DNA of 50,574 nucleotides, filler included, from Jimgerdemannia flammicorona (lineage: Eukaryota): the NCBI GenBank assembly GCA_003990765.1. It is 2 parts of 2 records of this genome, joined end to end, with 100 filler letters (N's around TTAATTAATTAA, not from the genome) between each part and the next. Parts side by side here need not be neighbours in the genome. Positions count along the whole stretch, not along the records: positions 25,339 to 50,574 come from RBNJ01000865.1; 1 more part is not named here. One strand, 5' to 3'. The notes below the pieces were generated by a model. That model had not been told where the DNA came from and ran no database searches. It saw nothing but the letters and a program-made list of their open reading frames with translations. Of the stretch, positions 15,358-50,367 are shown one piece after another. How positions within the stretch are numbered: position 1 is the first letter of the stretch; every line of letters starts with the position of its first letter. The translations under genes were made by a program, and so were the position numbers.

Positions 15358-15833
15358 TGTGACAGTACAGCCAGATTTGGAAGAAGGAAATAGGGAATAG
15401 ACACTTGATTGCACCCATTCCCAAAGTAGTATAGCATTATAGTTAGCAGTCCTCGATTTCGACATTGTCTAACTTCTTAGACATTGTCTAAATTTTGGAC
15501 ATTATCCAAATCAGATACCCCGATTTAGTATAGCATTTAGACATTGTCCAAATGTTTCGACAAAGTCCAAATGACTCATTTATTACTTAACCACCTTCTC
15601 ATAGCCAGCAAACTTGTATAAATAACCCAGTATCTTCGAGTGAATAAACCTCAGATCGAAATAGTTCAAAGCAAAGAGATAGCAAAGGAACTAGTAAGCC
15701 TGCAGACAGATACACTTCGAACTCACCCACCCTCCCCTGCCACTTCAAGAGACTCTGCGAGAGTCAGAACAGTCAAGTTTTCAAGATACAGAAATCTGAC
15801 ATACTTTCAAGAGTAAGTGTCTGCTACGTTACA
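15358..15833 (+). repeat. 5' LTR of A1 (476 bp)
   Basis: TGTGAC...GTTACA termini, TATAAATA at ~15617 and AATAAA at ~15643. Near-identical to 21610-22084. Confidence 0.95.
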
Positions 15834-15947
15834 ACTTGGTGCCCATTGGCTGGTGATTCAAGATGAATCCCTCACTTTCAAGCTGAACAACAAACAACTG
15901 CCACTACCCGAACAACTATACAAACCGAGCCCCAATACCCAGACAAG

Positions 15948-18900
15948 ATGGATATGAGACCACCAGTATTCCATGGATATACCTCAGATGAATCAATCAT
16001 CACATTCATTGACGATTTCGAGCAGTATGCTGCCATAAGGACCCTGACAGCAGCACAGCAAGTAGCCCTCATGCCCTTCAGCCTACGAGGCCCTGCCAGA
16101 GCAGCATTCACAGCCGCAACCCATGCAGGAAATGATGCCGATGCTGTACTGATAGCACAGAAGACCTGGCTTCGAAATACATACTACACAGATGAGATCA
16201 AGCAAGCCCTGAAGGATCAGCTCAACACAACATGCCAAGGAATGAGCGAGGATCCAAACACATTCTATACCAGAATTCGATATCAGATAATCCTTGCAGA
16301 TTATGCTGCTGCTACCCGAGATCAAGTAGCCGAAGCAACCTTCATGAAAGGAGTCCATCCAGAAATAGCCATGGCCATCTGCTCATCACCAGTGATTCTG
16401 GATCTGCCACAGAGGGTCACCTATGCTCAGCGATACTGAACAGCCAGACACCCACAAGACCATACAATGGAGAGGGTCACAGGAGTCAGAATCGAGGCAC
16501 CCAAGGCAACCAGTGTGATCCCCACCACAATGATCAATTGAAACACACCTCAGCCAAAAGCTACAGAGCAGCAAAAGAATAGTGACCCTATGGAGGAACT
16601 CACCAAAAGATTTGCTGAAATAACTGCCCACCTAGGAGACGTGGTAAAGGAAATCCAAGGAAGAGATCGCCGCCCTGTTCAGAAGTTTGCCGCCACCTCG
16701 GACAAGAAGAAAGGTACCTGCTACAGCTGCAGAGAAGAAGGCCACTACTCCTATGAATGTATGAGTGAAACCAAATACAAGGCTCAACCAAGCAATGCCA
16801 CACGAAACAAGGAGCAGGCCAATACAATCACCTTTGAAGAAATTGGAGAATCTGATGAAGAAGAATGGGAGGCCTATTCTGCTCAGACCACTAAGAAGAA
16901 TGTTTACAAAGAACCCTACAAGAGACCGCCAGGAAGACCCAAGAAGAACCCGGTGGAAAGCAGATGGAAACTGCCACAGAAAGTCAAGCCGAAGAGATGG
17001 ACCAGGATATCGAGCTGGAGCAAGCAGTTCAAGATATCATCCGAGGAACCACTCCAGCCAGTGAAGGAGAAAAAGAAAAGAAGCTTCGTAAGACCAAGAC
17101 CTTCAAGTATGATATCTTCAAGGATCTCAGTCAACAAAAGGTCAATGCAACCTTTGGTCAGCTTGCAGAAATCCCAACATTCAGACAGCAAATGAGGTTT
17201 GGACTTGCCGAAACAACCAAGGAACAAGGATGGAAGATAACTGAGGCCAATAATGTTCAAGAGGACTCAGGAGAAGAAAGTGAGGACAATTGCAAAACCT
17301 CTGCCTATGCAACATGCCAAATTGAGGATTGAGTCTTTGAAGCCATCATTGATACAGGAGCAGGAGGATGTCTCCTCAGTAAGAAGGCAGCAGACCGCCT
17401 AGGTTGGGATGTAGAAGAAGCAACTAAGCTAGTATTCATCACAGCCGATAGCACAAGAGCCACACCTCTGGGAAAGATCCAAGATGTTCCCATCAAGATC
17501 AGAGGAGCAACAATTCCAGTAGATGTAATTGTAACCAATGCCACCAACTATGACATCCTCATCGGCAATCAATGGCTTCACAAAGCCAAGGCAGTAATCA
17601 ATCTCAATGCCCAGAAGATGCAAATTACCTACCGGGGACAAAAGATACGAATTCCCATCAACATCAACAAAGGAGTCCTGCCCGATATGGAGGAAGAAGA
17701 GAGCGAGCAAGAGGAAGCTTATATGGTAACTACCCCGAAGAAGAAGAAAGTCGGATGGATGAGTGAAGAAGAATGGTACAAGAAGATCACTGAAGGCTAT
17801 GCCCCACAAGGAGTCTGTCCTCATGGAATCAAGATATACTGTATAGAGCATGTCAATTATTGCTACCAGTGCACCATCGGAACCAAGAAGATCTACCAGG
17901 AAAGAAGCCAGAAAGCTCTCGAAAAACAGATCAGGGAAGAAGAGAAGGAGGAAGATGATGAACCACCAGCCCTCCTGGAGGACAGCAATGACAAAGAAGA
18001 AATCAAGGTCAAGATTCGAAAGATCCACCCTGATGTAGTCTTGCCAGAATACAAGTCAGAAAATGCAGCCAGAATGGACATCGCTACAGTAGAAGAAACT
18101 GTACTTGAACCCCAGACAACCACCCTACTCGCAACTGGACTGGAGATGACCATCCCAAAGGATCATATTGGGATTCTCAAGACAAGAAGCAGCCTGGCTA
18201 GAAGCGAAATTGCAATCAAAGGAGGAGTCATCGATTCAGACTATACTGGAGAAATTCTACTCATTGCTAGGAACCACAATCCTACAATTCCATTCCCAGT
18301 CAAGAAGAAGGACCGATTGGCACAGATGTTGATCTTCCCAATCATACAGCCAAGGATCATAGAAGTCAAGAATCTGGAGGAAACGAAAAGAGGAAAGAAA
18401 GGATTCGGATCTACAGGAAGAGGAGTATTCGCCAGCACCAAGATTACTGAACTCGAGCATAAGAAGGAGGAAAACATGAGCAAGCACAGTTATACCATTG
18501 GAGACGAATTCCCACTCAAGGAGGAACTCAAGAAAATACTCCACAAATTTGAGGATATCCTCGCCACAGATTTCAAGGATATCAAGAGAAAGACCCCACA
18601 CTACTATCACGAGGTAGATACTGGAGACACCGAACCAATTTACCAGAAGGCAAGACCTGTCCCACCAGCTTACTGAGAATGGCTCAGAGAAGAAATCAAG
18701 CAGATGGAAGAAGCCGGCATCATCAAAGAAGCCAGTAGCCCCTGGTCTTCACCAGTTGTACTAGCCCTGAAAAAAGGAAGCAAATCTGGAGAATTTGCCC
18801 CAAGGCTCTGTGTCGACTACAGAAAGCTCAATGTAGTCACCAAAAAGGATCGCCAACCACTGCCACTCATCAGCGACATTCTTATAACACTGGGAGACAA

Positions 18901-21125
18901 AGCACAGTACTACAGCACCTTGGACTTATACTCAGGATTCCACCAAATCGGACTCACAGAAATGGCAAGTGAAAAGTCAGCCTTCATCACCCCAGACGGA
19001 ACCTACATCTACCTATGAATGCCATTTGGAATGTGCAATACACCAGCAAGCTTTCAGCGAATGATGAACAAAATCTTCTGCTATGATATGGGAAGATGGA
19101 TGATGGTCTATGTCGATGATGTAATCATCTACAGCAAGACAGCCGAGGAACATCTGCAGCACATACAGCAGATAATGGAGAGACTAAGACAACATGGCCT
19201 TTACATCAAACCCAAGAAGTGCAAGTTTGCGGAAATCGAGATCTCCTATCTTGGCCATATCATCAATCGAGATGGAACACACACGGACCCCCTCAAGATA
19301 CAAGTAGTAGTAGCATACCCAAGGCCCACTACTGTCACAGAAGCCCAAGTCTTCATAGGACTTGCCTCCTACTATTGCAGATTCATTAGAGGATTCTCCA
19401 ACATCGCAGGCCCAATCTACAAACTCAACAAGAAGGATACCAAGTTCCAGTGGACTGGCATACAACAAAAAGCATTTGATGAACTCAAGGTCAGACTAAC
19501 TCAGGCACCCATCCTCAGACGACCCAATTGGACCCAAGAATTTATCCTTTAGACAGATGCAAGCGCACAGGGACTAGGAGCAGTCCTAGCTCAAAAAGAA
19601 GACAAAAAGGAGTATGTCATCGCATACCTCAGCTGTGGAACCCGAGGAGCTGAAAAAGAATACGAGTCCTATAAGTTGGAATGCCCCGCAGTCATCTGGG
19701 CTGTGGAAAAGTTCCACTACTATCTGGCTGGAAGACACTTTACTATCCAGACGGACCACTCAGCTCTCACCTGGCTACTGACAACTGGACAACCCAAGGG
19801 AATCTATGCCAGGTGGATAATGAAGTTACAAGCCTATGATGTAACTATCGTGCACCACCCTGGAAGAACAAATTCCAATGCAGATGCTCTCTCACGGACA
19901 CCTTGAACTGCTTCCAATCAACAAATCAATCACGAATAAGGAGCTCTACTACAGAATTATCACATACCTGGGACAGTGAAAGATGCCCCAACATCTGGAA
20001 GAATGGACACAAACGATTATCAACAGAACATGGAAACAATTCGAAACTGATGGAGAAACACTGAAGAAAGGAAAACTACTAGTCATACCAGAACACAAGA
20101 AGGAGCAAGCAATGAAATCAGTACATGAACTTGGCCATCTAGGAGGAACAAATACATACGACAAGGCAAGAAAAACAATATGGTGGCCAGGGATGGAGGA
20201 AGATATCAGACAATTCGTCAAGACCTGTGACAAATGCCAGAAACAGAAACAAGACCAATGAAATCAAGCCCCAGGATCAGCACACATAGAACCAGTACCA
20301 TTCGCCCACATTGCAATGGATGTAATCGGCCCCCTACCATTGACTTTGACTGGCAACTGATACATCATTGTCATCGTAGACCTTTTTACAAAGTGGATAG
20401 AAGCGGGACCCCTTATGGAAGCTAATACACAGTCAATCACCGACTTCTTTCACAAGGAAATCATCTGCTGATTCAAGACCCCAACACAAGTAACTACAGA
20501 TAGAGGAACCGAATTCATGAACCAGTTCTTCGAAGTTCTCTACAAGAAGTACAAGATCCAGCACATTCGGACCACAGCCTATTACCCTCAAGGAAATGGA
20601 CAAGTAGAAAGGACCAACAAGACCCTCAAGAATGTTATCGCCAAGATCTGTGATAGCTACAAGAACTGGGATCACTATCTACCAATAGCATTATCTGCTC
20701 TCTGGGATATCCGATCACAAAGTACCCACTTTACCCCTCGAGAAATGCTGTTCGGAGAAGAATGTTCTCAGGGAACCTTGTCATTCAATGGAGATGCTGT
20801 ATGGAAACATGTGGACATGGAAATACGGAGACTACACCAAATCAGGAAGAAGGCTGAGGATTACATAACCAAGGTGCAGACCCTACAATGGAGGAATGCA
20901 GAAAAGACCCACAAGCCCTTGGAGATTATCAAGATAGGAGACAAAGTCCTGGTGTATCGGAATATGGTAGAAGCTTCATGATCACGAAAACTGGAGCCCA
21001 AGTGGGAAGGACCTTACCTTGTGCAAGATATAAAAGGGACCACCTTTTGGCTACAAAAACCCTCAGGCACAATAATCCCCACCACCATTCACCAAAACCG
21101 ACTCAAGAAATATCATGACCAGTAA
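15948..21125 (+). pseudogene. gag-pol of A1, interrupted by stops and frameshifts
   Basis: Capsid-like gag, zinc knuckle CYSCREEGHYSYEC (~16719-16760), protease IIDTGA (17351), dUTPase (~18005-18420), RT YVDD (19109), RNase H TDAS...NADALSR, integrase HHCC, core TDRG...GQVER and C-terminal WEGPY. Most stops are explained by CGA>TGA, CAG>TAG or TGG>TGA. Confidence 0.95.
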
Positions 21126-21645
21126 CAAAAGTACCGCGATGGCACTCAAGATCACTAGTGCTGCCCAAAGAGCCATCGAAAGACAATGGCACACCACCGA
21201 GCCTCCAACCATAGAACCATTCTATGAGGATATTCAGAGTATTGTGCAGACTCATCTCTCTCGGATCTCGCACTTTAGAGCCTATCAATATCGGGCAGAA
21301 TTCCAAGAGTACTTCAAGCTTGGACAAGTGCTCAATCAGGATCCAGCAAAGACCAAGGAGGACTGGATTGCCGAGTGTCAACTCTCCCACTCATAGATCA
21401 CTGTTGCCAAAAGGATCCACAAGTTATTCCGAGAAGATGAAGCAGCAATAGACCACCTGAGAGGAGTAACCCCTACTGACTTCGAGAAAGTGAGAAGACA
21501 TCATTGGGAAACAGTTATGCAGCAAATCGCACAGTACAAGACCAGACTGTTGAAGCCTGGGAGTTTGAATAGATGCCTCAGGGACGAGACCATCCATTCA
21601 GGAGGAAGTTGTGATGGTACAGCCAGATTTGGAAGAAGGAAATAG
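21115..21645 (+). pseudogene. Accessory ORF3 of family A (~176 codons, one internal TAG at 21394), function unknown
   Basis: The ATG overlaps the integrase end in another frame, and the frame stays open through the PPT into the LTR if TAG is read as CAG. It is similar to 48365-48660 and to the B-family LTR ORF. Confidence 0.75.
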
Positions 21646-22084
21646 GGAATAGACACTTGATTGCACCCATTCCCAAAGTAGTATAGCATTATAGTTAGCA
21701 GTCCTCGATTTCGACATTGTCTAACTTCTTAGACATTGTCTAAATTTTGGATATTATCCAAATCGGATACCCGATTTAGTATAGCATTTAGACATTGTCC
21801 AAATGTTTCAACAAAGTCCAAATGACTCATTTATTACTTAGCCACCTTCTCATAGCCAGCAAACTTGTATAAATAACCCAGTATCTTTGAGTGAATAAAC
21901 CTCAGATCAAAATAGTTCAAAGCAAAGAGATAGCAAAGGAACTAGTAAGCCTGCGGGCAGATACACTTCGAACTCACCCACCCTCCCCTGCCACTTCAAG
22001 AGACTCTGCGAGAGTCAGAACAGTCAAGTTTTCAAGATACAGAAATCCGACGTACTTTCAAGAGTAAGCATCCGCTACGTTATA
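21610..22084 (+). repeat. 3' LTR of A1
   Basis: Direct repeat of 15358-15833 preceded by the PPT. Confidence 0.95.
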
Positions 22085-24077
22085 ATAACTAATAAACTTA
22101 TATAAACAACTCTAGTATCTAGAGTAAATAAATCTTAGATCAAAATAGTTTAAAGTAAAAACTAAGTAAGTTTATAGATAGATATACTTTAAACATACTC
22201 CAATACTTTGCTGAAAACTCTGAAGAGTTAAGAAGACTAAAAAACTAAAATAAAGAAATTTACTATACTTTTTAGATTAACTTAGTATTTATTAATTAGT
22301 AATTTAAGATAAATCTCTCACTTTTAAGTAAAATAATGAACAGCTATCACAACTCAAATATCTACTCAAATTAACTCAAGATATATTATAAAAATTATCA
22401 GAGATATATATCTATAAAATCTAAATATATATATCTAGATAATAAATTTACAATTATATTCTAGAGTACTAAGTATGATCTTATATTGATCTTGTAGTAT
22501 ATAATAGATATAACAGAATATCTCTAGATATATTTTATATATATATACAATTTTACTTCAGTACTATTTCTAAAGTTTAGATAATTCTACTTTAATAGAT
22601 TCTAGATTCTTTATATATTTTAATATAGTTCTTTAATAATATAATACAATATATAACAATAAACTATATAATAGACCACAAGATATAAAATAACAATAAA
22701 CTGCAAAATTTAAATGATAATGAATAGTAATAGACTATAAAGATAATAATAAACTATAATATTATAAGATATTAATAATTAGAAACAATAATAGATTATA
22801 GAACAAATTCAGTATCTAAAAAACTAAATGAAATCTTACTTAAATCCAACTGTCTAGTATTTCTAAGATGTCTAGTTTTAGTTCTTTAGCTATAATATTA
22901 TTCTGTAAATTTGTTCTAGCTATAATTACTTACTTCTGCAAAGTGCTAAGATTTAATTTCTTCTTATAAACTATATTTTGAATTTATTTCATCTACTTAT
23001 AATATCTGAGAGACTTATTTTTATCTTTAAATTTCTCAATTAGGCTATCTATATACAGGTGCTCTAGCTATATTTAATAATTGAAATGAAAATTATTATT
23101 TAAGTCTATTATTAAACTGATTGCAATCTAAACTAAAAAAATAATGAACTTATCAAGCTACAGATAAATAAAAGCTGAGATATTTAATGATATATCTTTA
23201 AATCAAGATTTCTCTCCAAACTATAATAACCAAAAAAATAGAGATAATATATAGAGAGAAGAAGGATTCTTAAGCTAGTGTTAGAATAATATAATTGTCT
23301 ACCTTTATTCAGATTATATATTAGTAGTATATAAATAAATCAGACATTTGAACTATTCTCTATAAGTGACTATAATACCTTCTATTTAAGATCTTTGATA
23401 TCTTTGAGAGATATATTATTTAGAAACTGAAAGTTAATATTCAAGAAAAATATGCTCAAGAAATTGAAATAACATTTCTTTGCTTTACTTTAAACTTATG
23501 ATATCTCTCTAGAAATCTAATATAAATATATAAAAAATAAATAAAAAAAAAAATTATTATTAGCAAAATGATAATTAGTATTACAAAATATATAGTTATT
23601 TGTAGAATAATTAAATTATTATAAAAATTTATAACTATTATTAAGAATAGCCTTATAGATCTCTTTTGTCACTAACAATAAAAGATATTATAGAGAAAAT
23701 CTTATTGCTAAAATCCTTCTATTATGTAATATCTGACCAGATATTTTTTAGAAAAATAATATTGTAAACTTAATATATAGTTCACTTCTACTGAGTATTA
23801 CTATATCTATGCTTCACAAGTATAGTATCAATTTTGATATTTTTACAGTATATATTATTACTAATTTCTGACTGCACAGTTGATCTATAAATAGATGCAG
23901 ATATAAAAATTAATATCTAAATATCAGATATTATACTAAAGCTCTTAGAGAATTATATTTACTTCCAAAAAACAGATATCTTAGTCATAAGATTAATATT
24001 TATTACTGAGACTTTTTATAGTTTTATAATATACTCTTATTACAATTATAGAGGAGACTCTTGATGAAATCTTTAAT

Positions 24078-24360
24078 CTGGACTTAAACAATATCATGGA
24101 CTTGAATAATGCAGTAGACTTAAATAATATAATAGACTTAAATGATATAGTAGACTTGAGTAGTATGATAAACTTAAATGATATAATAAAACTGAATAAT
24201 ATAATGAACTTGAACATTGTGATAGACTTAAATGATATGATAGACTTGAATAATATTGTAAACTTGAATAATATAGTAGTATTGAATAATATAGTAGACT
24301 TGAATAATATGATTATGAACTTAGACTTAAATGATATAGTTATGAACTTGAACTTAAATA
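24078..24360. repeat. Degenerate 18-bp tandem repeat (about 15 units, consensus near GACTTGAATAATATAGTA)
   Basis: Periodicity is visible directly and produces hexapeptide-repeat ORFs on both strands. Confidence 0.8.
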
Positions 24361-24734
24361 AAATAGTAAGTTCTAATTTTAAAGTTATTATCAAAATTAT
24401 TATCTTTAAAATTAGTATCCTCTAAGTTATTATTTAAATATTCTATAATATTTATAATTTAAAAATATGAATTAAATTTAATTTAAATGTTACAAATAAT
24501 ATAAACATATTTATATTTATACTTACAAACTCATCTAACTCATCTTTATCTTACATTTGATGAGAATAATAATGATATAGATGTATCCTAACAGCTTTCT
24601 TATCTTTATCATTTTGATATATTACTGAGAGAGTTGTAGTATCATCAAGATTACTTCTAGATCTATTTTGAAAATTTTACTTGATATCAAAATAACTTTT
24701 TAGCCTACTATTATTTTAGTAAAATAATGACCTA

Positions 24735-25338: not shown

Positions 25339-25545
25339 TTGAGGGAGGATGATGAGGTCATGGTGGCATGGTGGAGAGCGTGACATCGGTCAGATGCCAC
25401 TGCGGTATATGGAATGCAACCAACCCCGCCCCCGCCAAATAATAATGTCTAGGTACATCAAACAAATTCTTGAATAAACTTCTCCGCGCACCCAGAGGAT
25501 TCCAATAGTCCCCTCCACTCCACTAAAATATAGACAATTTCATAC

Positions 25546-27333
25546 CAGTTCCGCCCTCTTCAGCAGATCCCTCTCCTGCAACGGCGCGCGCGTGATTCCG
25601 ACATCGGCGCCGAGCTGACTCAGCAGGATGGTGTAGTTCTCGCCGTCCGAAACGTCCTTGCTGAAGTTGCTGACCCTGGGAACGGAAAATGAGTGTCGTA
25701 GTTAGGGAGGTGATTGGACGGAGATCCTCTAGGTAGGTAAGGCTACCCATCTCGCGAGGCACAATTTCAGGCAAAACAAGGTGCCGCGACGTTCTTCGTG
25801 TCACGCAAAAAAAGAAAAAAAGAAAAAGAAAAAAAAAAAAAAGAAAAGAAACACGTTGCACACACCTCCTCTGCCAATTCGCAGCCTTGAGGTGATAGTT
25901 GAACCACCTTAACAAAATCTGGTCGGGAGGCAGCCGGAGGAACTCGTCGAGGGTCTCGTCCTCGTCGAGGAGTCGGTAGAGCTCCGGGTGATGCTTGATG
26001 TCAATCTTTGAGAGGAGGCCGCGTTTGATGATTTGCCAAATAAGGCCGAGGATGAGATGCTCGCGGCCCTCCATGATATCGTTCGGCCCGATGTTGACGA
26101 CGGAGCAGCCAATGGCCTTGGCCGAGTTGATGACGATGTTGTTGTTCTCGATCATCTGGAACTGGTTGATCTTCTTGCCCGTGTTCAAAACCCGCTCGTC
26201 GATCGTGTCGGGGACCGCGTCGTTGATCAGTTTGCATAGGATGAGGCCGTCTGGCGGATGAGTGGGTGAGAGATTTCAATGATTGAATGCGAGGGAGAGA
26301 TTTTTATGTCTCAAACAACGGTATCCACATGCACACGATGCCGGTCATTCCCATTCCCCGACATCTTTGCTCTCCCATCATCCAACATACAGATCATAAA
26401 CCACCCAATGGTCCCAAACATGTACCTCTGCATTCATCAAACAGTTGCATTGTATTTGTGGGGATGGGCAGCTTCTTGCCAATGTCGCGGTCGCCGTCCA
26501 GCTGGGAGTTAATGTGATGGGTAAACTCAGTACGCTCGTCCTCATTGATGGTGTGCGAGGTGTTTTGGTTGGCACCCATCACCGTGATCTTGTGCTGGTG
26601 GACGTCGAAGGCACCCTTGTTGCGGCCCTCGCGGAGCTTAGAGGCGAGCTGTTTAGTATGAGAATGAGATAGTTTGGATGAGAAAATGTTTCGGATATTA
26701 GGTATTGCCGGATTTCTTTCCGGATACTGTTGTAAGAAGCCGGTTTGGCAACAAGAACCCTCATATATAGTTCATGACCTATTTAATCATCACCGATCCT
26801 CGGCATTACTCTAGATATTCCATATCAGATGATCTTGCTCATTCCATGCATATATACCCTGGGTTCACCCTTCCGTTTATCTAAAGTAAAGTACGTTTCC
26901 TCACCTCAACAAATTCATCAACGTCAATTTTGCCGGATGAGTTGGTGTTGACCTGCTTAAGCGTGGCGCGGATCTCGTCATAGCTCTCGCTCAGACGAGC
27001 TTCTTGGCACGCTTTGATGAGCTCGCTCTGTTCCAGGTAGCCGTCGGCGTCCATGTCACATTGCCTGCATGAATAGAGTAGCCGGCTCAGTCGGTAGCAG
27101 AGAGGTTGGGGGGGGGAGGGGAAGGGGGTGGAAAGGATCTCGCCAGTAGCCCCCCCCCCCCCCCCTCCTCTCTCTCCTTTGAGGCTAGGGAAGCCATGCG
27201 AAAGTATCGGCAGGACGCAAGCGTCACTAGGTTAGGAAAGGCATACGTACTCGAACTGGGCGATCAGGCCATTGATATCGTTGACAGTGAATGCTGGGTA
27301 TCTCTTCTGAAGCTGAAACACGTTGACTGGCAT
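25546..27333 (-). CDS. SAC6: Fimbrin/plastin, 5' part. Exons 27333-27251, 27064-26905, 26648-26426, 26250-25866, 25675-25546; the rest is lost at the contig end
   Basis: GT-AG introns with consistent phases. The translation gives EF-hands (DMDADGYLE, NTNSSGKIDVDEF), then CH domains DGLILCKLINDAVPDTIDERVLN, SAKAIGCSVVNIG, HLILGLIWQII, ILLRWFNYHLK and NFSKDVSDGENYTILL. Confidence 0.95.
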
Positions 27334-30122: not shown

Positions 30123-31665
30123 GTCTAGACTTTCAGAAATTTATATATTAATAGTCCTTAGGCTATAAAAGTAGGCAAATTTGTCTGCAAAAATATGTAT
30201 ATATTTTTTTTTTTATTTTATGAACTCTATGTCCTGTGGATTTTTATTGGAAGAGAACCTAGACTATATAGGCCAAAACCCTCCCTCACCACCCATCAAG
30301 CACTGCCTCCCCATTAATCTAGGCTAGCTATTGTTCAGCAGCTCAACCATACCAGACACAGCAGGGCCTATATTAGCCCATACCTCATTCTGTACACCAT
30401 GCTCTCCCTATCACCAGGGGAAACCCAGCTATATGTCAATGACTGAAAGTACATACCCAAGAACCCAACATATATATGTATAAGACTATGCCCGAGCTGA
30501 ATAGAATAGCTCCTGCCACCCCAAAGAGAATGACAGGTAAAGAAAAAACCCTCATCAAAGTACAACACAGTAGGTAGAGCCTGATTCTCTCAGTCAAGAT
30601 GAGTAGAGGACTTACATATGAGACAGGAGGAGACCTCCAATACTCCACTACTCAAGCCTGTGGGCCTTGATCACGTTGCCATATCAGCTCTCGGTTCTAG
30701 TTGAGTGCAGCCAAGATGCCTGAAATAGGTAGCCTCGGGCCCCCCGACCCTCTCAGATAACCAGGGCCCAATCCCACAAATCGCCAAAAGAAGCCGAGAG
30801 TGATACCTATTACCTAACTGCACTGCACCAATCAAAAGGCCCCACTGAAGCAGCACCTGCCTCAGCCCTGATGACCACCCCCAGCCTAGCACCCTACTGG
30901 TTCACTGTTATCGCCCTTCCTCCTATCTGTAATAGCCATCTCCCCTCTCAACCTGACAACACCTGAAAATCAGTTACCTATATCAGAACTGTACTTGCTG
31001 GAAAGCTCGCCAAAGCCAGAGGGCCCCACTACAGGCACCGAGGACCTGCAAGTAACCTATACTGAGCACTTGATGCCCAAGGTCAGCTGACTCCCTACGT
31101 AGCCTGAGATATACTGAGACAACTCCATGTTGGCAATGGCAAAAGGAAAAAGGTGCTACATTAAAATGGGTATACCCCAGATGCAGCTGAAGGCACCAGA
31201 ATCTGCAAAAAAGTGGAGGAAGCATCGATCTGACATTGATAAAGGGGCAACTCATCACCATTGCCCTCCTTCCACCATACCCCTGCAGGCACAGCAAACC
31301 AACCCAAGGTAGAGGGGGTAATATTAGGGGAAAGGGGACTCAGAAGATCGCCTACCAAATCTTGTGACCAGTAAGGTAGCAGAGAAAGGAGCTGTGCAAA
31401 AAAATATATATATATATATATATTGTAACAGTGACTCCAGAATGATAATATCAGCACAGGAGACAGTCTTTCTTTGCAAGCCACCAGATTGGAACACAAA
31501 AAGATTATATAGCATATGAGATGAGCAATGATGACCAACTGTAAGTCATTATGACCACAGTACAAGTATCCTGAAGAATATAAAAGAAGGATCAAGGAAC
31601 TGCAGTAGCAGTAACTAACAAGAACCACTAATTCCAAATTAGCTCAAAGACTTACCATAAACAAA

Positions 31666-32895
31666 ATACCTGCTGCCCACCAAACCTCAAGGTCAAGGAA
31701 CCACCAAGGTATCTCAGTTGAAGAAAGAATGTTCTAAGACATCAGAAGAGCCATAAGGACCTGCTCAAGAAGGACTCCTAGTATATATCAACCTGGGTAC
31801 TAGAGACCCCTATCACTTTATTCTCTACTACTATGAAATGGAAACAAGGATCACCATTGCTATCGAATGCCTCCAAATGTAGCAGGAGTATGAAATAGGA
31901 AACCTCCTCTGCCGGGAGTTCCCACAGGCCAGCACTCAAGAGCTAAAAGATGCTACTTCCATAGATATATATGAAACAAGGACAACTAAGAAGATCCATC
32001 AGATCTTCAGGAATAGTTGATCCCCAACTTGGAATATGTTAGAGTCTCAGATTTCAGAGATCTGTCATCCCACCATATCAATGCACTAGAAGCCAGAGTG
32101 GCTACAGAAGCCCAGTCCACTATTACTCTCAATAATAATGAAGTAGAAGACTTCTGGCTAGTGCTCTCAAATGAGTCGAATCAATTCAAATTAAATTGAA
32201 TTGAGGGTTAAATAAGTTGAATCGAATTGGGGATTTTTCAATTCAAATCAATTTGAATCAAATCAAAAGTCAAATCAAATTGAGGGTCTGATTCAAACCC
32301 TAATTTTCAAAATGCAATAACTCACCATAAACTCATCCAAATCTAACATACTTTAGCTTATTAGAATCACATTAATATAGTGAATCTAACAAGTGAAAAT
32401 ATGTTAAATTCAGATAAGTTTTCATCGAGTTATTATATTTTGAAAATTAAGGTTCAAATTGAATTAGACCTTTGATTCGATTCGAATTGAATTGAATTGG
32501 ACCCTTGATTCGATCAAATTGAATCAAGTTTGGGCCAAATTCGATTTGATTTGATTTGTTGGGAGCACTACTTCTGGTACCCTATCCTTCAGGACAACCC
32601 AGACCAATTCCTGTAAGGGTTGATCTCAGTATTCCAAGGCCCAAGCATCTAGGTTAGATCTCCCCAAGACCCCACATTTGTCTCCTATTTTGTGGAAGAG
32701 AACCTCATAGACTAGAGAGCTCCAGATCTTGTTCCCAATTTCTCCACTACCAAAAGTGATGACATCATCAGCAATGATGTCATCCTGTATGATATTGAAG
32801 CACGTGAAAATGATGAATTCATGAATCTCATCTCCTTCAGTAATGATGATGATGATGAGGATGAAGCCCCCATGGTCCTGAACTTTCTGCTCTAA
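31666..32895 (+). pseudogene. LTR-encoded accessory ORF, copy in the B1 5' LTR (ATG>ATA, MITE insertion, small indels)
   Basis: Collinear with 39313-40125. Confidence 0.75.
32159..32570. mobile_element. hAT-type MITE (412 bp) inserted in the B1 5' LTR
   Basis: TIR TAGTGCTCTCAA...TTGGGAGCACTA and 8-bp TSD CTTCTGGC/CTTCTGGT. The empty site is seen in the other B LTRs. Subterminal TCGAAT/TCAAAT arrays are present. Confidence 0.92.
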
Positions 32896-33494
32896 GGTCT
32901 TTGTTACACTAAATAATGCCAGCACCAGTATTCTCATGTAATATTAGATAATGCCAGCACTAGCATTCTGAGGTAATGTGAAATTGTTCCAGCATCGGTA
33001 TTCTGATATAACACTAAATTATACCAGTATCCTTAACCTGTACAACCATCAGTGCTGACTCTGAAACTTAGTAGTTTTAGTTATTAGAATTTATATTTAG
33101 CTTTATATATTAGCAACCATTGAATTATATTTTGTATAAATACTCCTCTTATTTCCTCTGAAATAAAGTCAGTCTTTTCAGTGTAATATACACAATCTAT
33201 TACAAGCAATCTAAGAGATAACAAGACAGTTAAAGATAAGAAGTTTGAGGACTATAAGACCTTGAGAAGGCACTCCAATAAGAACTTGCTTATAACAAAA
33301 CTTGAGTTAGTCTAAGAGATATATCTTGAAGAGAATCTGGCATATTTGAAGAACTCAGTGACTACTACATGACAACTTGGTGCCCATTGGCTGGTGATTC
33401 AAGATGAATCCCTCACTTTCAAGCTAAAAAACAAACAACCCCCACAACAACTACTCTGACTATAAGAGTCACCTCTGCAAGAATTTAAGATAAG

Positions 33495-38706: not shown

Positions 38707-39312
38707 AAGAAGCAAAATGTGATGACCACCCATGAGGTTCTAGTCCACAAATTGTAACAGTATGTCCTGTGACCAGCAGGCTATCTGTCTGGACCATTCT
38801 CTAAGGGATACAGCACTGGCAACTACTCATCCATGAGACTTTTGAAGTCAGAGGAGTTTGAACCATCAACTGATTGATCAAGATCAGAATCAGGCCCTTG
38901 CTCTATATGAAGGGAGTGACTCTTCACCATCACACCAAAATACAAAAAGAAGATGCCAGCCCATAAACACCACTTTTCGACCCCTTGCCAGAGGTTATGG
39001 GATCAGCAAATTTTTCAAAACTGGACTAATGAATAAGGATGCTCAGGAAGATCCTTATTCAGGAGGAAGATGTAACAGTGATCCCAGAATGATGATATTA
39101 GCACAGGAGACAGCCTTTTCTTGCAAGTCACTAGATTGGAACACAAGAAGATTATATGACATATGAGATGAGTAATGATGACCAACTGTGAGTCATTGTG
39201 ACCACAGTACAAACATTCTGAAGAATATAAAAGAAGGATCAAGGAACCACAGTAGCAGCAACCAACAAGAATCACCAATCTCAAATTAGCTCAAAGACTT
39301 ACCACAAATAAA

Positions 39313-40125
39313 ATGTCTGCTGCCCACTAAACCTCAAGGTCAAGGAACTACCAAGATATCTCAGTTGAAGAAAGGATGTTCTAAGACATCAGAAGAGCCA
39401 TGAGGACCTGCTCAAGAAGGACTCCTAGTGTCAACCTGGGTACTGGAGACCCCTATCACTTTATTCTCTACTACTATGAAATGGAAACAAGGATCACCAT
39501 TGCTATCAAATGCCTCCAAATGTAGTAGGAGTATGAAATAGGAAACCTCCTCTGCTGAGAGTTCCCACAGGCCAGTACTCAAGAGCTACAAGATACCACT
39601 TCTATAGATATATGTAAAACAAGGACAGCTAAGAAGATCCATCAGATCTTCAGGCATATACTATAGTCAATCTCCAACTTGGAGTATGTTAGAGTCTCAG
39701 ATTTCAGAGACCTATCATCCCACTGTATCAATGCACTAGAAGCCAGGATGACTATAGAAGTCCAGTCCACTATCACCCTCAATAGTGATGAAGTAGAAGA
39801 CTTCTAACACCCTATCCTCCAGGACAACTCAGATCAATTCCTACAAGGGTTGATCTCAGTATTCCAAGGCCCAAGCATCCGGGTTAGATCTCCCCAAGAC
39901 CTCACATTTGTCCCCTATTTTGTAGAAGAGAACCTCATAGACTGGAGAGCTCCAGATCTTGTTTCTGATTTCTCTGCTACTGAATGTGATGATGTTATTG
40001 GCAATGACATTATTCCACATAATATCGAAGTATGCAAAAATGATGAATTCATAGATCTCATCTCCTTCAGTGATAATGATGATGACAAGGATGAAACCCC
40101 CATGGTCCTGAACTTTCTGCTCTAA
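39313..40125 (+). pseudogene. LTR-encoded accessory ORF (270 codons), copy in the B1 3' LTR
   Basis: ATG to TAA in one frame with no frameshift. Internal stops are sense codons in sister copies. TATAAAAG lies about 85 nt upstream. Confidence 0.82.
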
Positions 40126-41049
40126 GTTCTTTGTTATACTAAATAATGCCAGCACCAGTATTCTCATATAATACTGGATAATGCCAATACTGGCATTCTG
40201 AGGTGATGCGAAATTATTCCAGCACTGGTATTCTGATGTGATACTAAATTATACCAGTATCCTTAACCTGTACAATCATCAGTGCCGACCCTGGAACTTA
40301 GTAGTTTTAGTTATTGGAATTTATATTTAGCTTTATATCTTAGCAACCATTGAATTATATTTTGTATAAATACTCCTCTTATTTCCTCTAAAATAAAGTC
40401 AGTCTTTTTAGTACAATATACACAATCTCTTGCAAGCAATCTAAGAGATAACAAGACAGTTAAAAATAAGAAGTTTGAGGACTATAAGACCTTGGGAAGG
40501 CACTCCAATAAGAACTTGCTTATAACAAAACTTGAGTTAGTCTAAGAGATATACCTTGAAGAGAATCTGGCATATTTGAAGAACTCAGTAACCACTATAT
40601 GATAATATATATAATTTTTATTTAAAAATATTTTTTTACTAATAAATATAAAGTTAAAAAAAAATTTAAAAATTTTTGCAAGTAAATTTACTTATAAAAA
40701 TATATAGTCTATTAGATAGAAAATAGCTTAGTATATGTCTATTGATATTCAATAGTTATAAAAATAGCTGCAGTAATCTTATTCTTAGTTTGTTCTTAGT
40801 ATTATTATTAGTTATTTATATTATAGACAAATTATCTATATAATATTTGAGAATATTTATACTTATCTTGTCAAGAGTATAACTATTCTTTAGAAATTCT
40901 ATTGGAATTTTCATTATACTATATATTTATATCAGATTACTACTTCTTCTATATTTGGTAAAAGATTGTCTTCTTTTTTTCAAGTAGTATATATGAATAC
41001 TCTTAAGAGAATACTAATTGATATACTGATTCTGATTAGCTCTAATTCT

Positions 41050-41639: not shown

Positions 41640-44600
41640 TATAATGGTGACCCCAGTATAGGAGACAGTCTTTCCTTATAAGCCATCAGATCAGAGCACA
41701 AGAAGATCATATGGTATATGAGATGAGCAATGATGACTAACTGTGAGTTATTGTGACCACAGTTCAGATATCTTGAGAAATATAAAAGAAGGATCAAGAA
41801 ACCACAGTAGTAGCAACCAACAAGACCCACTAATCCCAAAATAGCTCAAAGACTTACTATAAACAAAATGCCTACTGCTCACCAAACCTTGAGGTCAAGG
41901 AACTACCAAGGCATCTTAGTTGAAGAAAGGATGTTCCAAGACATCAAAAGAGCTATGAGGATCTACTCAAAAAGGACTCCTAGTGTCAACCTGGGTACTA
42001 GTGATCCTTACTATTATATTCTCTATTACTGTAAAATGGAAACAAGGATCACCATTGCTACCAAATGCCTCCAAATATGGCAGGAGTATAAAATAGAAAA
42101 TCTCCTCTACCAGGAGTTCCCACAGGCCAGCCCCCAAGAGTTATAAGATACCACTTCCATGGATATATGTGAAGCAAGGATAGCTAAGAAGATCCATCAG
42201 ATCTTCAGGTATATACTATGATCAATCCCCAACTTAGAGTATATTAGAGTCTCAGATTTCAGAGATCTATCATCCTACCATATCAATGCACTAGAAACCA
42301 GGGTAGCTATAGAAGCCCAGTTCACTATCACTCTCAATAGTGATGAAGTAGAAGACTTCTGGCATCCTATCCTCCAGAACAACCCAGACCAATTTCTACA
42401 AGGATTGATCTCAGTATTCTAAGGTCCAAGCATCCAAGTTAGACCTCCCCAAGACCCCACATTTGTCTCCTATTTTGTAGAAGAAAACCTCATAGACTGG
42501 AGAGCTCCAGACCTCCTTTTTGCTGCCATCAAATGTAATGATATCATCAGTGATGATGTCATCCCACACAACATTGAAGCATGTGAAACATGCAATGATG
42601 ACAAATTCACAGATCTCATCTCCTTCAGTGATGATGAGGATAAAGCCCCTATGGTCTTGAACATTCTGCTCTGAAGTTCTTTGGTTATACTGAGCTATGC
42701 CAGCATCGATATTGTGATGTAATACTGAGTTATACCAGTACTGGCATTCTGATATAATACTGAATTATTCTAGCACCATTTTCCTGTATTACCAGAATTA
42801 TATCAGCATCCTGAACCTGTACAACCATCAGTGCTGATCCTAAAACTTAGCAGTTTTTCCTGTTCTGGCATTTTATTTTAGTTATTGGAATTTATATTTA
42901 GCTTTATATCTTAGCAACTATTGAATTATATTTTGTATAAATACTTCTCTTATTTCCTCTAAAATAAAGTCAGTCTATTCAGTCTATTCAGTACAATATA
43001 CACACTTTCTTACAAGCAATCTAAGAGATAACAAGATAGTTAAAGATAAGAAGTTTGAGGACTATAAGACCTTGGAAAGGCACTCCAATAAGAACTTGAG
43101 TTAGTCTAAGAGATATATCTTAAAGAGAATCTGGTATATTTGAAGAACTTAGTGACTACTACATACATAACAACTTAACACCCATTGGCTGGTGATTTAA
43201 GATGAATCTCTCACTTTCAAGCTAAAAAATAAACAACCTCCATAATAACTACTCTGACTACAAAAGTCACCTCTGTAAGAATTCAAGATAAGATGGAAAT
43301 ATGTCCTCCCATATTCTATAGATATACTACTGAAGAGTCAATCCTGACCTTTATTGAAGACTTTGAACAATTCACTACCATACAAACTCTTAGTGTGGAT
43401 ACATAATTGGCCCTTCTATCAGTCAGTCTCAGAGGACCTGCTAGAGACAAGTTCAATGCAATCACTATTGCTGATAATAGTACAGCCAAACTTGCCAACA
43501 TAAAGATCTTTCTCAGAACAATATTCTATACTGAAGAGATTAAGCAAGCTCTCAAGGATCAACTCAACACTATCTGTCAGAGACTTAGTGAAGATTCCAA
43601 CTTATTCTATATCTGAATCTACCACTAGATTGTCTTGGCTGACTATGATAATGCCCTCAAGGAACAAATAGTGGATTCAACCTTTCTTAAAGAAGTTCAC
43701 CCTGAAATTGCCCTAGCAATCTGGTCTACTCCAGCTGCACTGATCCTTGATTAGAAAGTGATATTTGCACAGAGATATTGGACTGCCAGACACTCTACCA
43801 AACCCTCAATAGAGAAAATAACTGGCATCAAGATAGAGCCATCAAAGCTAACTAGTATCATATCTGCTACAGTTGTAAACAGATAACCAACCCCATCTAC
43901 CCCCAAGGTAGCCAAAGCTGACCCAGTGGAGGAACTTGCTAAGCAGTTCACTGAGATGACTATACATCTTGGTGATATTGTTAGAGAAGTCCAAAGTGCC
44001 AACAGGAGACCAGTATAGAGATTTGTAGCTGCTATAGAAGAATATAATATCACATGCTTCAGATATGGAGAAGAAGACCACTATGCAAAGAATTGTATGA
44101 CCAAAACAAGATGCAAAGCCCAACCAAGCAATACTAGCAGAACCAGAGAACAAACTAATGCAGTAGTCATCAAGGAGATTAGTGATACTGATGAAGAATA
44201 CTATGAGGAGCTTGAATTCTACTCTGCTACTGAAGGTACCAGAACTCAGTCTAAGCCCTATGATAAGAAGAGCAATAGCAAGTCAGTTGGAAGACCAAAA
44301 AAGACCCCAGCTATTACTATTCAAAGCAAGACTCAACTCAAGGAGATTGATCAAGATATGGAGTTAGATAAAGCTGCCTGCCAAATCATTGAAGGCACTA
44401 CTTCAGTCTCTGGAGAAAGTGAAAGCAAGAAGAAATAGAAGCTGTGTAAGACTAAGATCCACCAGTATGATATCTACAAAGATCTTAAAGAACAGAAGGT
44501 CAATGCTACTTTTGAACAGCTAGCCAAAATCCCTGCCTTCAGACAGCAGTTGAGAGTAGGACTTGAAACTACTTCTAAGAATTAAGAGTACAAGATTGTA

Positions 44601-46754: not shown

Positions 46755-47352
46755 GCCTGAAGATCTGATGAATCTTCTTAACTATTCTTATTTTACATAC
46801 ATCTATGAGAGTGATATCTTATATCTCTTAGAGACTAGCCTGAGGGAATTCCTGGTAGAGAAGATTTCCTATTTTATATTTTTGTCACATCTAGAGATAT
46901 TTAGTAGCAATGGTAATCCTTGTTTCTATTTTATAGTAGTAGAGAATATAATGATAAGAGTCACTAGTATACTCAGATTGAGACTAGAAGTTCTTCTTAT
47001 ATGAGTCCTTATGACTCTTCTGATGTCTTGGAATATTCTTTCCTAGACTGAGAGGTCTTGATAGTTCCTAGACCTTAAGGTTTGGTAAATGGCAGGCATT
47101 TTATTTGTGGTAAGTCTTTTGAATTATTTCTGTAAGTCTTGTTTGAGTTGCTACTACTGTGGTTTCTTGATCTTTCTTTTATATTTCTTGAGATATCTGT
47201 CTTATGATCATAATGACTCATAGTTGGTCATCATTACTCATCTTATAGCCTGGGTGAGTTATGCCATATGATCTTCTTATACTCTGATCTGGTGACTTAT
47301 AAAGAAAGACTGTCTTCTATAATAATGTTATCATTTTGAAATCACCATTATA
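46755..47352 (-). mobile_element. Inverted 5' fragment (~600 bp) of a family-B LTR
   Basis: Reverse complement matches the B LTR from its start to KKIHQIFR of the LTR ORF. Confidence 0.88.
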
Positions 47353-49192
47353 CCAAATATAAAAAGGAGTAAGTAATGAAATCAGTATATAAACTTAGCT
47401 ATCTATAAGAAATAAATATATATTAAAGTAAAAAGAATAATATGATGGCCAGAAATAGAGAAAGATATTAGATAATTTATCAAAACCTATAATAAATATC
47501 AGAAATAAAAATAAGACAACTCTGAGATCAGTACATATAACTAGCACTATTTGATAATATTGTAATGAATATAATTAGCCCTCTACTCTTAACTTTGGCT
47601 GACCAACTAATATATTATTATTATTATAGATATTTTTATAAAATAGATAGAAGTAAAACTACTCAAAGAAGTCAATATATAGTTAATTGCTGATTTCTTT
47701 TATAAAGAAATTATCTGCTGTTTCAATACTTCAATACAAGTAACTACAGACAGAGGAATAGAATTTGTAAATCAGTTCTTTAAGGTTCTTTATAAGAAGT
47801 ATAAGATTCAGTATATTTGGACTACAGTCTATCACTCTTAAGAAAATAGATAAATAAAAAAGACCAATAAGACTCTTAAGAATATTATTATTAAGATCTA
47901 TGATAACTATAAAAACTAGAACCAGTATCTGTCAATATATAGTATTATCTATTCTCTGAAATATCTAATTACAAAGTATCTATTTTATCTCTTAAGAAAT
48001 ATTGTTTAGAGAAGAAAGTTCTCAAGAAATTCTATCATTTAATAGAGATACTATATGGAAATATATAGATATAGAGATATGGAGACTATATCGAATTAGA
48101 AAGGAGGTCAAGAATTATATAACTAAGATATAGATTCTATAATAGAATAATATAGAAAAGATTTATAAGCTTTTAGAGATTATTAAAATAAGAGACAAAG
48201 TTCTGCTATATTAGAATATAGTAGAAGCTTTATGGTCATAAAAACTGAAGCCTAAGTAGAAAGGGTCTTATCTTATATAAAATATAAAAGAAACTACCTT
48301 TTGGCTATAAAAACTCTCAGATATAATTAGCTTTCTACCATTTACTGAAACTGACTTAAGAAGTTCTATCAGAACTAGACTGAGTTTCAAGAATACTTCA
48401 AGTTTGGATAGCTACTGAATTTATAGTTAAAAATGAGAAAAGAAGACTAGATCAGAGAGTATCAGCTCTCTTATACTCAGATTACTATTACTAAATAAGT
48501 ATATAAGCTATTTAAGATTATAAGCCAGCTCTAATACATTTCTAAGGAGTAGTCTCAGAAGACTTCAGATATATTAAGAGATACTATTGAGAAAATATAA
48601 TAATACAAATCACATAATATAAGAAGATACAACTTATAGAAGCTTAGGAGTTTGAGTGAATAAGATGTTTTAGGAATAAATTACCTATTTAGAAAGAAGT
48701 TATGATAGTTGATCTGAATTAAAAATATAAATCAAAAAAATAGATATTTGATCATAGTATCTGAATTCAATTTCCAAATATAGTATAGTTTTATAAATAG
48801 TAATTATTCTATCAAATATAGAAATTTTAACAAATATTAGAATTTTATAAATATCAAGATTTAACAGATGTTAAATTTTGATAATTATTGAAATCTTATA
48901 GATATTAAGGATCCATACTTATAAAAAGTAACTCATAAGAAATATAGTCATAACTTAGCCATCTTATAGCTAGTAAACTTATATAAATATTCTCAGTATC
49001 TAGAGTAAATAAACCTCAGATCAAAATAGTTCAAAGCAAAGAGAAAGTAAAAGAACTGATAAGTCTATAGATAAATATACTTCAAACTCACCTATTCCTA
49101 TATCCTAAGAACTCTACAGAGTTAAAGAAGATCAAGTTTTCAAGATACAGAAATCTGACACACTTCTAAGATTAGATATCTACTATATTATA
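47353..49192 (+). mobile_element. Old family-A-like element, 3' part (copy A2): integrase, ORF3 remnant, 3' LTR 48701-49192
   Basis: Collinear with A1 from about 20088 to 22084, with massive C>T/G>A erosion. Decayed PPT AGAAAGAAGT. Confidence 0.88.
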
Positions 49193-50367
49193 ATATATTT
49201 CAATATTATTAAATAATAATCTAATAAAGTTTTACTCTTTCTCATAGACTTATCAGTTTATTTAAAAGTAATTGAGACTAATATAAAGAAATATATAAGT
49301 AAGTTTAGTAAAAAAAAAAAAAAAAAAAAAAAAAAGAACAAAGTTTATAATACTTATCTTTAAAATAGATCTTATCATATTTTCTAAGAGTAGTAAAACT
49401 CATATATGTATATATAGAAAGGTCAACCTAGATTATTATCTCAGAAATAGACAATCACAATTACCTAACAGCAGAAAACTTACTGAGACTATTATAAATA
49501 AATATAATAGTAAATCCTAGATGTCTACCAGTGAGTATCCTTTGTGAGTATCCTTTGTGAATTATGACAGAGAAGCTTAAAGGAGAGAGGGAAGATATTC
49601 ATACTGGAATCCTGTAGAGTAGATCTTGGGGGGAATAAAGGGAAAAATGAAGTTCGCCTCTCATTGGAAAATGGACACTATTTACTCCAAAAAAAAAAAA
49701 AAAAAAAAAAAAAAAAACACGTCACGCGAAGAGCGCAACGAACGTCTATTGGTCCATCGGTTCGTCGCAGCAGAGTCGCACATGAATATATTCACGTGTG
49801 TTTCGCTGTGTATCGAAAGGCATTGCACACATAATGATGATCCAGCTTATACGTTTCCACCTGCATGAAACCTTTCAAACTTTGACATCCGTCACCCCGC
49901 TTTTCTGGCTGGGTCGTGTGGGGGTGCCTGGAAAACCCTGGCGATGGGGATTGGGAGGATCTGGAACTTTGGCGACGGCATGTAGCATGTTGGGCAAACA
50001 CATACAGTACAAACGCCAGTGCTGTCATCGATCGAGGGATCGAGGAGGTCGGGAGGCTGTGCTGACGCACCGAGACGACGACGCGCAATGTCGATCTTAT
50101 TCGGTTCTGCGACCAATTTCTGGAGGCCTTTTTATTCAGGTAGAGTTTCTTTACATGCACAAGGGTGAAAATGAGTTTGCTATTGGTGACAAGTGAACAA
50201 AAAATTACATGTGTGGCGGTCCCCAGCTGTTCAGATGTGCGGAGATCAGAGATGTAGGGTGTGTGTTGTATCGGATGGAGTTCTATATCTATCTATAAAT
50301 AGCTCTTGTAGATAATGGGTCATAAATGTCTATGCGAGTGTGGTGGTGTATTATTCTACATGCGGGA

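Follow-up and report, generated by a model that had tools for sequence, protein, structure and literature searches.

Can the long terminal repeat (LTR) of a probably fungal retrotransposon hold a protein-coding gene of its own? The question is raised by a 50,574-nt stretch of DNA from Jimgerdemannia flammicorona (assembly GCA_003990765.1; two records joined with filler, and referred to here, in its entirety, as the window), across which self-comparison revealed nested LTR retrotransposons, and in which a preliminary description, made from the sequence, had placed a gene of about 270 codons inside the LTRs of one Ty3/Gypsy family, designated here as family B. We consider it very probable that a gene lies in the LTR at both ends of the family B element B1, that intact homologues 28-79% identical occur elsewhere and that one of these is flanked by matching signals, that the copies in the window have been inactivated, and that a shorter homologue sits at the junction of pol and the 3' LTR in a sister family, family A. 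The best explanation overall, in which we have moderate confidence, is that the open reading frame (ORF) represents a real accessory gene of a dUTPase-bearing Ty3/Gypsy clade, which in family B lies wholly within the U3 region of the LTR.

An open reading frame inside the family B LTR

The 3' LTR of B1 (39071..40604, plus strand) ends TG..(C>T)A and has the polypurine tract (PPT) AGGAGGAAGA directly upstream. Within it, a TATA box (TATAAAAG, 39226-39233, plus strand; hereafter, TATA1) stands 87 nt upstream of the ORF start, and the leader contains no ATG. The ORF itself (39313..40125, plus strand) comprises 270 codons and a stop (40123-40125), is interrupted by seven internal stops and scores 393 bits against a hidden Markov model (HMM) of the protein family described below. 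Further downstream are a 35-nt unit, repeated twice (40189..40257, plus strand; TRF), and a second TATA box (TGTATAAATA, 40363-40372, plus strand; hereafter, TATA2), followed after 27 nt by AATAAA (40392-40397). This second TATAAATA/AATAAA module sits 3' of the ORF and the short repeat in family B LTRs, which are 1.53 kb long. The TATA box, the ATG at 39313, the 270-codon frame, the stop at 40125, the repeat and the second TATA/AATAAA pair, within an LTR of ~1.53 kb, thus all lie where the preliminary description had put them. Its tally of three near-complete copies and one partial copy was too generous; it holds for the copies in the B1 3' LTR and in element B2 and for an inverted partial copy, and fails for that in the B1 5' LTR, which is badly broken.

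The evidence that decides whether this frame is a gene comes from intact homologues outside the window, and it indicates that the frame is, as far as sequence comparison can tell, a real conserved coding gene inside the LTR. Specifically, a word-indexed search of 5.8 billion proteins with the read-through translation of the B2 copy as query recovered five homologues. One of these, P0003, has 271 residues without a stop, aligns with B2 over its full length, initial Met and final Leu included, and reads, from MPAARQTSRSRN to DEDEAPRILNFLL, much as the consensus given in the preliminary description. When 1.84 billion representatives were searched exhaustively with a profile, only 5 proteins were returned at E <= 0.001, and a profile search with a broader alignment returned 12; with cluster members included, the database homologues total 15, all of them on short metagenome contigs (for example, 4848 bp for P0011 and 2375 bp for P0007). 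Three are complete and uninterrupted (P0003, 271 aa; P0011, 342 aa; P0014, 325 aa), P0002 and P0007 (247 aa) begin at an internal Met, and the remainder are fragments, some visibly decayed (P0015). Identity to P0003 ranges from 79% down to 28%, and no longer or fused forms of the protein were found. In addition, a metagenome scan with P0002 recovered a 1345-bp locus, L001, with an open 323-codon ORF, whose protein is ~55% identical to that of family B. A scan of metagenome DNA with the family alignment as query found no locus, and nothing was found when viral contigs and genome contigs were searched for relatives. The 15 database proteins, together with the copies in the window and in L001, would appear to constitute a new orphan family of accessory proteins.

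The copies in the window record how such a frame has decayed. In-frame stops number 7 in 270 codons in the B1 3' copy and 3 in 268 in the B2 copy, as against 12-29 in the other five frames; under a Poisson model, counts this low have probabilities of 2e-3 and 9e-6, respectively. The B2 copy (41868..42674, plus strand) lies in the B2 5' LTR (about 41640-43172, plus strand), has 268 codons and a stop, with three internal stops (TAA, TGA and TAA), and scores 427 bits against the HMM. Every stop in the window aligns with a Q, W or R of the intact homologues, as single C>T or G>A changes would give, and the indels that separate the B1 3' and B2 copies keep the frame inside the ORF, where 3/3 are multiples of three (6, 9 and 9), in contrast to those outside it, where 4/5 are not (2, 2, 22 and 16; the fifth is 9). 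Both patterns had been recognized in the preliminary description, as C>T-type damage and as frame-keeping indels, and both are borne out here. Most damaged is the copy (31666-32894, plus strand) in the B1 5' LTR (31424..33374, plus strand), which begins with ATA, carries further stops, as well as +4 and -7 indels of its own, and is split by a 412-bp miniature inverted-repeat transposable element (MITE; 32159..32570). This MITE, as read from the sequence, has a terminal inverted repeat that begins TAGTGCTC and an 8-bp target-site duplication (TSD; CTTCTGGC/CTTCTGGT); a TSD of that length suggests hAT-type mobilization, and the MITE is younger than the B1 insertion. An inverted partial B-type LTR (46755..47361, minus strand), adjoining the end of the B2 internal part at 46754, retains TATA1 and about 115 codons from the 5' end of the ORF.

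With regard to the base changes themselves, the ratio of observed to expected CpG is 0.10 in the intact L001 and 0.02-0.07 in the B copies of the window, and the polarized private C>T changes of the two B1 LTRs fall mostly in a CpA context (23 and 27). Either a process resembling repeat-induced point mutation (RIP) or methylation-driven decay could have produced this pattern.

Signs of selection come from L001 and its comparison with family B. The longest open frame of L001 spans 343 codons, whereas none of 2000 shuffles yielded one longer than 193. Between B and L001, omega was 0.16-0.44 by four methods, with a dS of about 1 or more and with the window copies contributing neutral changes to the comparison, and third codon positions changed most (134-140) and second positions least (66-71). 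Transversions were also compared, since deamination decay barely touches them; over the well-aligned first 216 columns, they affected 8/40 four-fold sites and 15/212 second positions (p = 0.016). Inside the window, the two B1 LTRs differ at 146 sites, 140 of them transitions. As the LTRs were identical at insertion, these differences are neutral, yet the pair gives an omega of 0.42 in the ORF frame (Nei-Gojobori), while B1 versus B2 gives 0.31-0.68.

The encoded protein resembles no family that was searched for. Pfam, at E up to 1, gave no family besides a sub-threshold chance match, and the PDB gave no match by sequence or by profile. Among the structure comparisons, Foldseek against the PDB and a search of BFVD each gave 0 matches at E <= 0.001, the ESM Atlas yielded no credible match (best feature score, 0.83; TM <= 0.33), and VIA-align against 48,161 chains reached a best Z of 4.3, with none >= 5. 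An origin as a gag, pol or env fragment was rejected, given the hhalign probability of 0.1% between the family A gag and the LTR ORF protein, the lack of any retroelement Pfam domain and the lack of a PDB match; membership of the Sag family of mouse mammary tumor virus (MMTV) was rejected as well, there being no Pfam match and no membrane anchor. The preliminary description was therefore right to call the gene unknown and to separate it from known gag, pol and env sequences, as it was about the acidic C-terminal tail. This tail, which follows IDWR and whose boundary was found in five proteins, has a net charge of -10 to -25 and contains 21-32% D+E and ~30% F/W/L/I/V/M/Y; the motif DLI(S/N/T)F recurs in it, and a terminal LNF(L/x)L is conserved in the tail-bearing members. 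The first 45 residues have a net charge of +1 to +8, with +4 to +8 in near members and only +1 in P0011. No membrane-like segment was detected (maximum 19-residue hydropathy, <= 1.07). In the structure models, for which the mean pLDDT was 38.2 at first and 53.8 (pTM 0.45) with a more diverse alignment, helices are predicted at 18-32, 47-83, 100-113, 136-149 and 173-185, and the tail is disordered. By a test of composition only, an acidic C-terminal region with interspersed bulky hydrophobics matches an acidic activation domain. Such a composition would also fit SUMO-interaction motifs or an export signal.

Signals of the LTR and the family A homologue

Families A and B are Ty3/Gypsy LTR retrotransposons with a dUTPase in pol, and their repeats are true LTRs. 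Pfam matches in family A comprise zf-CCHC, an RVP-type protease, dUTPase, RT_RNaseH and rve, with the dUTPase placed between the protease and the reverse transcriptase (RT), and a dUTPase motif was seen by eye in the corresponding place in family B. Internally, the two families are 67% identical across 5.3 kb. They also have in common an identical 45-nt stretch that includes the primer-binding site (PBS) TGGTGCCCATTGG and the PPT/LTR junction ATTCAGGAGGAAG|TGT, and the B LTR has the termini TGTAAC...ATGACA, with the PBS TGGTGCCCATTGG and the PPT AGGAGGAAGA. B1 is set in an (AT)n tract, and thus, any TSD of 4-6 bp is ambiguous. A tRNA gene scan of the window found none, and an Rfam scan of the window found nothing. 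Gypsy elements that bear a dUTPase have been reported from basidiomycetes and Tuber (PMC2864245), and ones with the dUTPase between the protease (PR) and RT also from bdelloid rotifers (PMC5408684).

The order of signals around the ORF is the same in family B and L001, namely TATAAAAG, ORF, TGTATAAATA and AATAAA; in L001, GAATATAAAAG occupies positions 1-11, the ORF runs from an ATG at 69 to a stop at 1038-1040, and TGTATAAATA (1216) and AATAAA (1244) follow. The 11-nt GAATATAAAAG stands 65-89 nt upstream of the start codon in 5/5 ORF-bearing copies, L001 included, and in all five, the leader between TATA1 and the ORF is free of ATG, in contrast to the LTR stretch 5' of TATA1, where ATG was counted 7 times (155 nt) and 6 times (141 nt). 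Downstream, TGTATAAATA followed after 26-27 nt by AATAAA is found in 4/4 LTR types examined (B1, B2, L001 and A), with ~190-215 nt of LTR beyond the AATAAA in A and B. The family A 3' LTR (21610..22085, plus strand; 477 bp), which lacks the ORF, has this module once, with a spacing of 26 nt, and the TATAAA in the module is the only one in the family A LTR. Upstream of that TATA box, the family A U3 (15450-15600) contains at least five copies of GACATTGTC(T/C)AA(A/C)T, which are enhancer-like and analogous to the 35-nt repeats of the B LTR.

Because the module is common to the ORF-less family A LTR, TATA2/AATAAA is quite probably the genomic promoter and poly(A) signal, which would place the ORF wholly in U3. 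The ORF lies upstream of this putative promoter module, from which the genomic start is deduced. On that reading, family B would have a U3 of about 1.3 kb and family A one of about 0.26 kb, with TATA1, the ORF and the repeats accounting for the extra length in B. An AATAAA near the start site, which the genomic RNA would either lack at its 5' end or carry there close to the cap, is the retroviral arrangement. The ORF unit would share the LTR's poly(A) signal, and given a TATA box and a clean leader as well, any LTR, even a solo LTR, would hold a complete unit.

A six-frame translation of the window was also searched with the HMM built from the family alignment. In addition to all four B copies, it matched one further site, at 21301-21540 (i-E 4e-7), inside the family A element (15358-22085; LTRs of 477 bp, 96.4% identical to each other). 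The match belongs to an ORF of 176 codons (21115..21645, plus strand), with one TAG at 21397, that crosses the PPT and ends 12 codons inside the 3' LTR. By hhalign, this ORF and the LTR ORF family align with a probability of 88.9% (E 2.4e-6) over 116 columns, corresponding to P0003 positions 13-151; hence, the family A ORF corresponds, as a remote homologue, to the LTR ORF in its N-terminal two thirds, without the conserved core (WNPILQDNPDQFLQG...IDWRAP) and without the acidic tail. Its start codon overlaps with the final codons of pol (ATGACCAGTAA; 21110-21125), which suggests coupled termination-reinitiation or a spliced mRNA. A decayed remnant of the same A-type ORF (48361..48516, plus strand; tblastn 50% over 52 aa, E 3e-10) lies in a third element, which is A-like and represented by its 3' end (47350-49195). 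The homologue in A and the remnant in the third element point to the protein being an accessory gene of this clade. Further, the gene appears to have held two positions within the clade, at the pol-3' LTR junction in A and wholly inside U3 in B, and as the PPT/LTR border is homologous in both families, the change of position cannot be a simple shift of that border.

Proposed mechanism and its rivals

How might a gene so placed be expressed, and what might it do? We propose that TATA2/AATAAA would provide both the promoter of the genomic RNA and its poly(A) signal, with the AATAAA, located 26-27 nt after TATA2 and about at the expected start site, acting only in the 3' LTR. From TATA1, an mRNA of its own, about 1.1-1.2 kb long, would be transcribed up to the shared poly(A) signal, a step for which we find the arguments evenly balanced. 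Each LTR, solo LTRs included, would be a self-contained gene. From its composition, the protein might, tentatively, be a nuclear regulator that acts in trans on the expression of its own family; an activator of the LTR promoter would be the most likely role, and an RNA-export or anti-silencing factor would be less likely. The accessory factor put forward in the preliminary description therefore stands in so far as the LTR holds a genuine conserved gene with its own TATA box and an ATG-free leader, while its regulatory function is argued from composition. We further speculate, with considerable doubt, that the clade could have moved a 3' accessory gene from the pol-LTR junction (the A state) into U3 (the B state), with a promoter of its own. 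Each insertion would then supply two copies of a trans-acting regulator, and each solo LTR one, such that the LTRs, taken together, could boost the whole family or shield it, through activation of the LTR promoter or as an antagonist of silencing, a function that would outlive the loss of gag-pol.

One rival, which is improbable but deserves serious consideration, accepts the U3 gene as real and has it translated from a spliced subgenomic RNA of the genomic transcript, as are MMTV sag and nef of human immunodeficiency virus (HIV), with TATA1 either being incidental or acting as an enhancer. With TATA2 as the promoter, the ORF is bound to be included in the 3' part of the genomic RNA, and the family A homologue, which has no TATA box of its own and an ATG that overlaps the pol stop, must use an element-length or spliced RNA. 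A precedent exists in CERV of Cer1, which is reported to be made from a spliced mRNA (PMC10309623). Against this, the 11-nt GAATATAAAAG has been kept between B and L001 despite a protein identity of ~55%, the leader is ATG-free in 5/5 copies while the LTR just upstream is ATG-rich, and a splice acceptor conserved between B and L001 was not found, by eye only. Far less probable is the proposal that TATA1 is itself the genomic promoter, with an R region of about 1.15 kb and the ORF as a first cistron upstream of gag, like the ORF0/ORF1 of plant elements. Its appeal lies in the conservation of TATA1 and the clean leader that follows, and extra upstream ORFs have been reported in plant Gypsy elements, such as ORF0 of Retrosat2 (PMC3485330). 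However, in family A, whose LTR lacks the ORF, the TATA2-type module is the only one present, at the same 26-27 nt spacing, and a transcript from TATA1 would meet the AATAAA about 1.1 kb downstream and should end before gag. To our knowledge, an R of more than 1 kb would also be exceptional.

The remaining two rivals question whether the ORF matters to the element at all. That it is merely carried along as a passenger, having been captured as a host gene or part of one and doing nothing for the element, seems very improbable. LTR retrotransposons are known to capture genes (PMC7264820), but the 5 matches in 1.84 billion representatives are small metagenome ORFs of the same family, none of them resembling a host gene, and no longer or fused forms appeared. 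Moreover, the frame has been kept open in lineages diverged to 28-41% identity, and a homologue occupies a second position in family A. Scarcely credible, in our judgment, is the view that there is no gene, and that the open frame is a by-product of composition or of a cis-acting constraint on LTR DNA. It can draw on the stops present in all window copies and on an omega for B1 versus B2 that is not clearly under that of the neutral control. It does not account for uninterrupted frames of 271-342 codons in diverged copies, for the L001 shuffles, which reach 193 codons at most, for indels that keep the frame, or for changes between B and L001 that are most frequent at third positions (134-140) and least frequent at second positions (66-71).

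Several observations weigh against a functional gene in U3 as we have described it. All four copies in the window are dead, through transition decay, frameshifts and the MITE. The stops at codons 24, 71 and 118 are common to both B1 LTRs, and if they were inherited, B1 transposed with a broken ORF, and the gene was not needed in cis; the same TGG codons have been struck independently in B2 and in the partial copy, such that parallel hits are possible for the shared B1 stops too. As the neutral pair already gives 0.42, dN/dS, the measure favored by the preliminary description, does not discriminate within the window. Over the whole alignment, the transversion contrast is weak (9/43 versus 29/265, p = 0.079). 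The intact database ORFs are an ascertained sample, given that gene callers report open frames only, and L001 has no LTR end, such that the LTR context of the intact homologues is deduced from their signals. Finally, the most distant members have an N-terminus that is only weakly arginine-rich, and with so poor a structure model (mean pLDDT 53.8), any function is read from composition and the fold results weigh little.

Accessory genes separate complex retroviruses from simple retroelements, which gives the proposed U3 gene its wider interest. If it is real and has a core promoter of its own, then solo LTRs, which are usually regarded as enhancers or as inert scars, could give rise to a protein specific to the family, and gene dosage would follow the number of LTRs and not that of intact elements. 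Sister families that differ in arrangement would provide a natural experiment on how an accessory gene moves relative to the PPT/U3 border, the same question that is posed by sag, nef and bel. In practical terms, annotation pipelines would mask this orphan protein family as repeat.

Neighboring features and comparison with known systems

The window holds several other features. A fimbrin/plastin gene (25523-27231, minus strand), with EF-hands, CH domains and short introns, includes a fragment (25886-26275, minus strand) that scores 232 bits to PDB 1rt8, 192 to 1pxy and 159 to human plastin-3; the first two we take to be the fimbrins of fission yeast and Arabidopsis, respectively, and from this one gene, a fungal host is likely. 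Sequencing runs that share small portions of the window are mostly from soil metagenomes. A decayed non-LTR element resembling long interspersed elements (LINEs) spans 9000-15300 (minus strand; Pfam RVT_1, E 1.5e-20) and has an unusually strong strand asymmetry, with a GC skew of -0.33 to -0.58 on the plus strand. An intron-less ORF of 385 codons (3575-4732, minus strand) combines a signal-peptide-like start with an astacin (M12A) domain (E 4.6e-8). Zinc sites of the HExxH type include a catalytic Glu, which is apparently missing from the motif HLFGH...H of this ORF. An AT-rich minisatellite (23993-24425), which reads as repeated NIIDLNN-like units, is situated in a spacer between elements with 21-24% GC.

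A close parallel to the family B arrangement is MMTV sag, a complete ORF of about 300 codons in U3 that is likewise carried by each of the two LTRs and by the genomic RNA in its 3' part. The Sag protein is a membrane glycoprotein, and its virus infects vertebrates, whereas the LTR ORF protein has no hydrophobic segment and no Pfam match (E up to 1), the host is probably a fungus, the family B element has no env, and its ORF has a conserved TATA box of its own. The nef gene of HIV and simian immunodeficiency virus (SIV) and the bel/tas genes of foamy viruses are 3'-terminal accessory genes that cross the PPT into U3, as does the family A homologue (21115-21645), which extends over 12 LTR codons. 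Tas, moreover, has an acidic tail and transactivates the LTR of its own virus, a function that we would favor here. Unlike these genes, with which we found no sequence or fold similarity, the family B ORF would lie entirely in U3 and not just overlap it.

Among retrotransposons, the LTRs of Cassandra, a terminal-repeat retrotransposon in miniature (TRIM), contain 5S rRNA-like units, and those of BARE1 have two TATA boxes. Both therefore provide examples of a second transcription unit or a second promoter in an LTR, but in neither does the LTR encode a protein. For an export factor of the Rev, Rem or CERV type, which would combine an arginine-rich RNA-binding motif with a leucine-rich export signal, the observations are mixed, with an N-terminus that is basic in near members (+1 in P0011) and a conserved C-terminal LNFLL/LNFxL motif; CERV is reported to be a nuclear regulator required for export of the genomic RNA (PMC10309623). 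More generally, the additional ORFs (aORFs) of retrotransposons, such as the env-like and antisense ORFs of plant elements and those of Boty, Retrosat2 (ORF0) and Cer1 (CERV), are, like the present family, lineage-specific, fast-evolving orphans added to gag-pol. Their usual position (sense, internal and 3' of integrase) is that of the family A homologue, at the classic pol-3' LTR site, and not that of the family B copies, which lie inside the LTR. In the accessible parts of two accounts, aORFs are described in the internal region and none inside an LTR (PMC7264820, PMC3485330); ORF0 of Retrosat2, considered as an LTR-located precedent, was set aside for its internal position (PMC3485330). In the literature searched, from which subscription journals were mostly absent, such that absence from print is not established, LTR-located ORFs were found in MMTV and other retroviruses only. 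Thus, an orphan accessory family in the LTR would seem to be new for retrotransposons, in a layout otherwise known from a few retroviruses.

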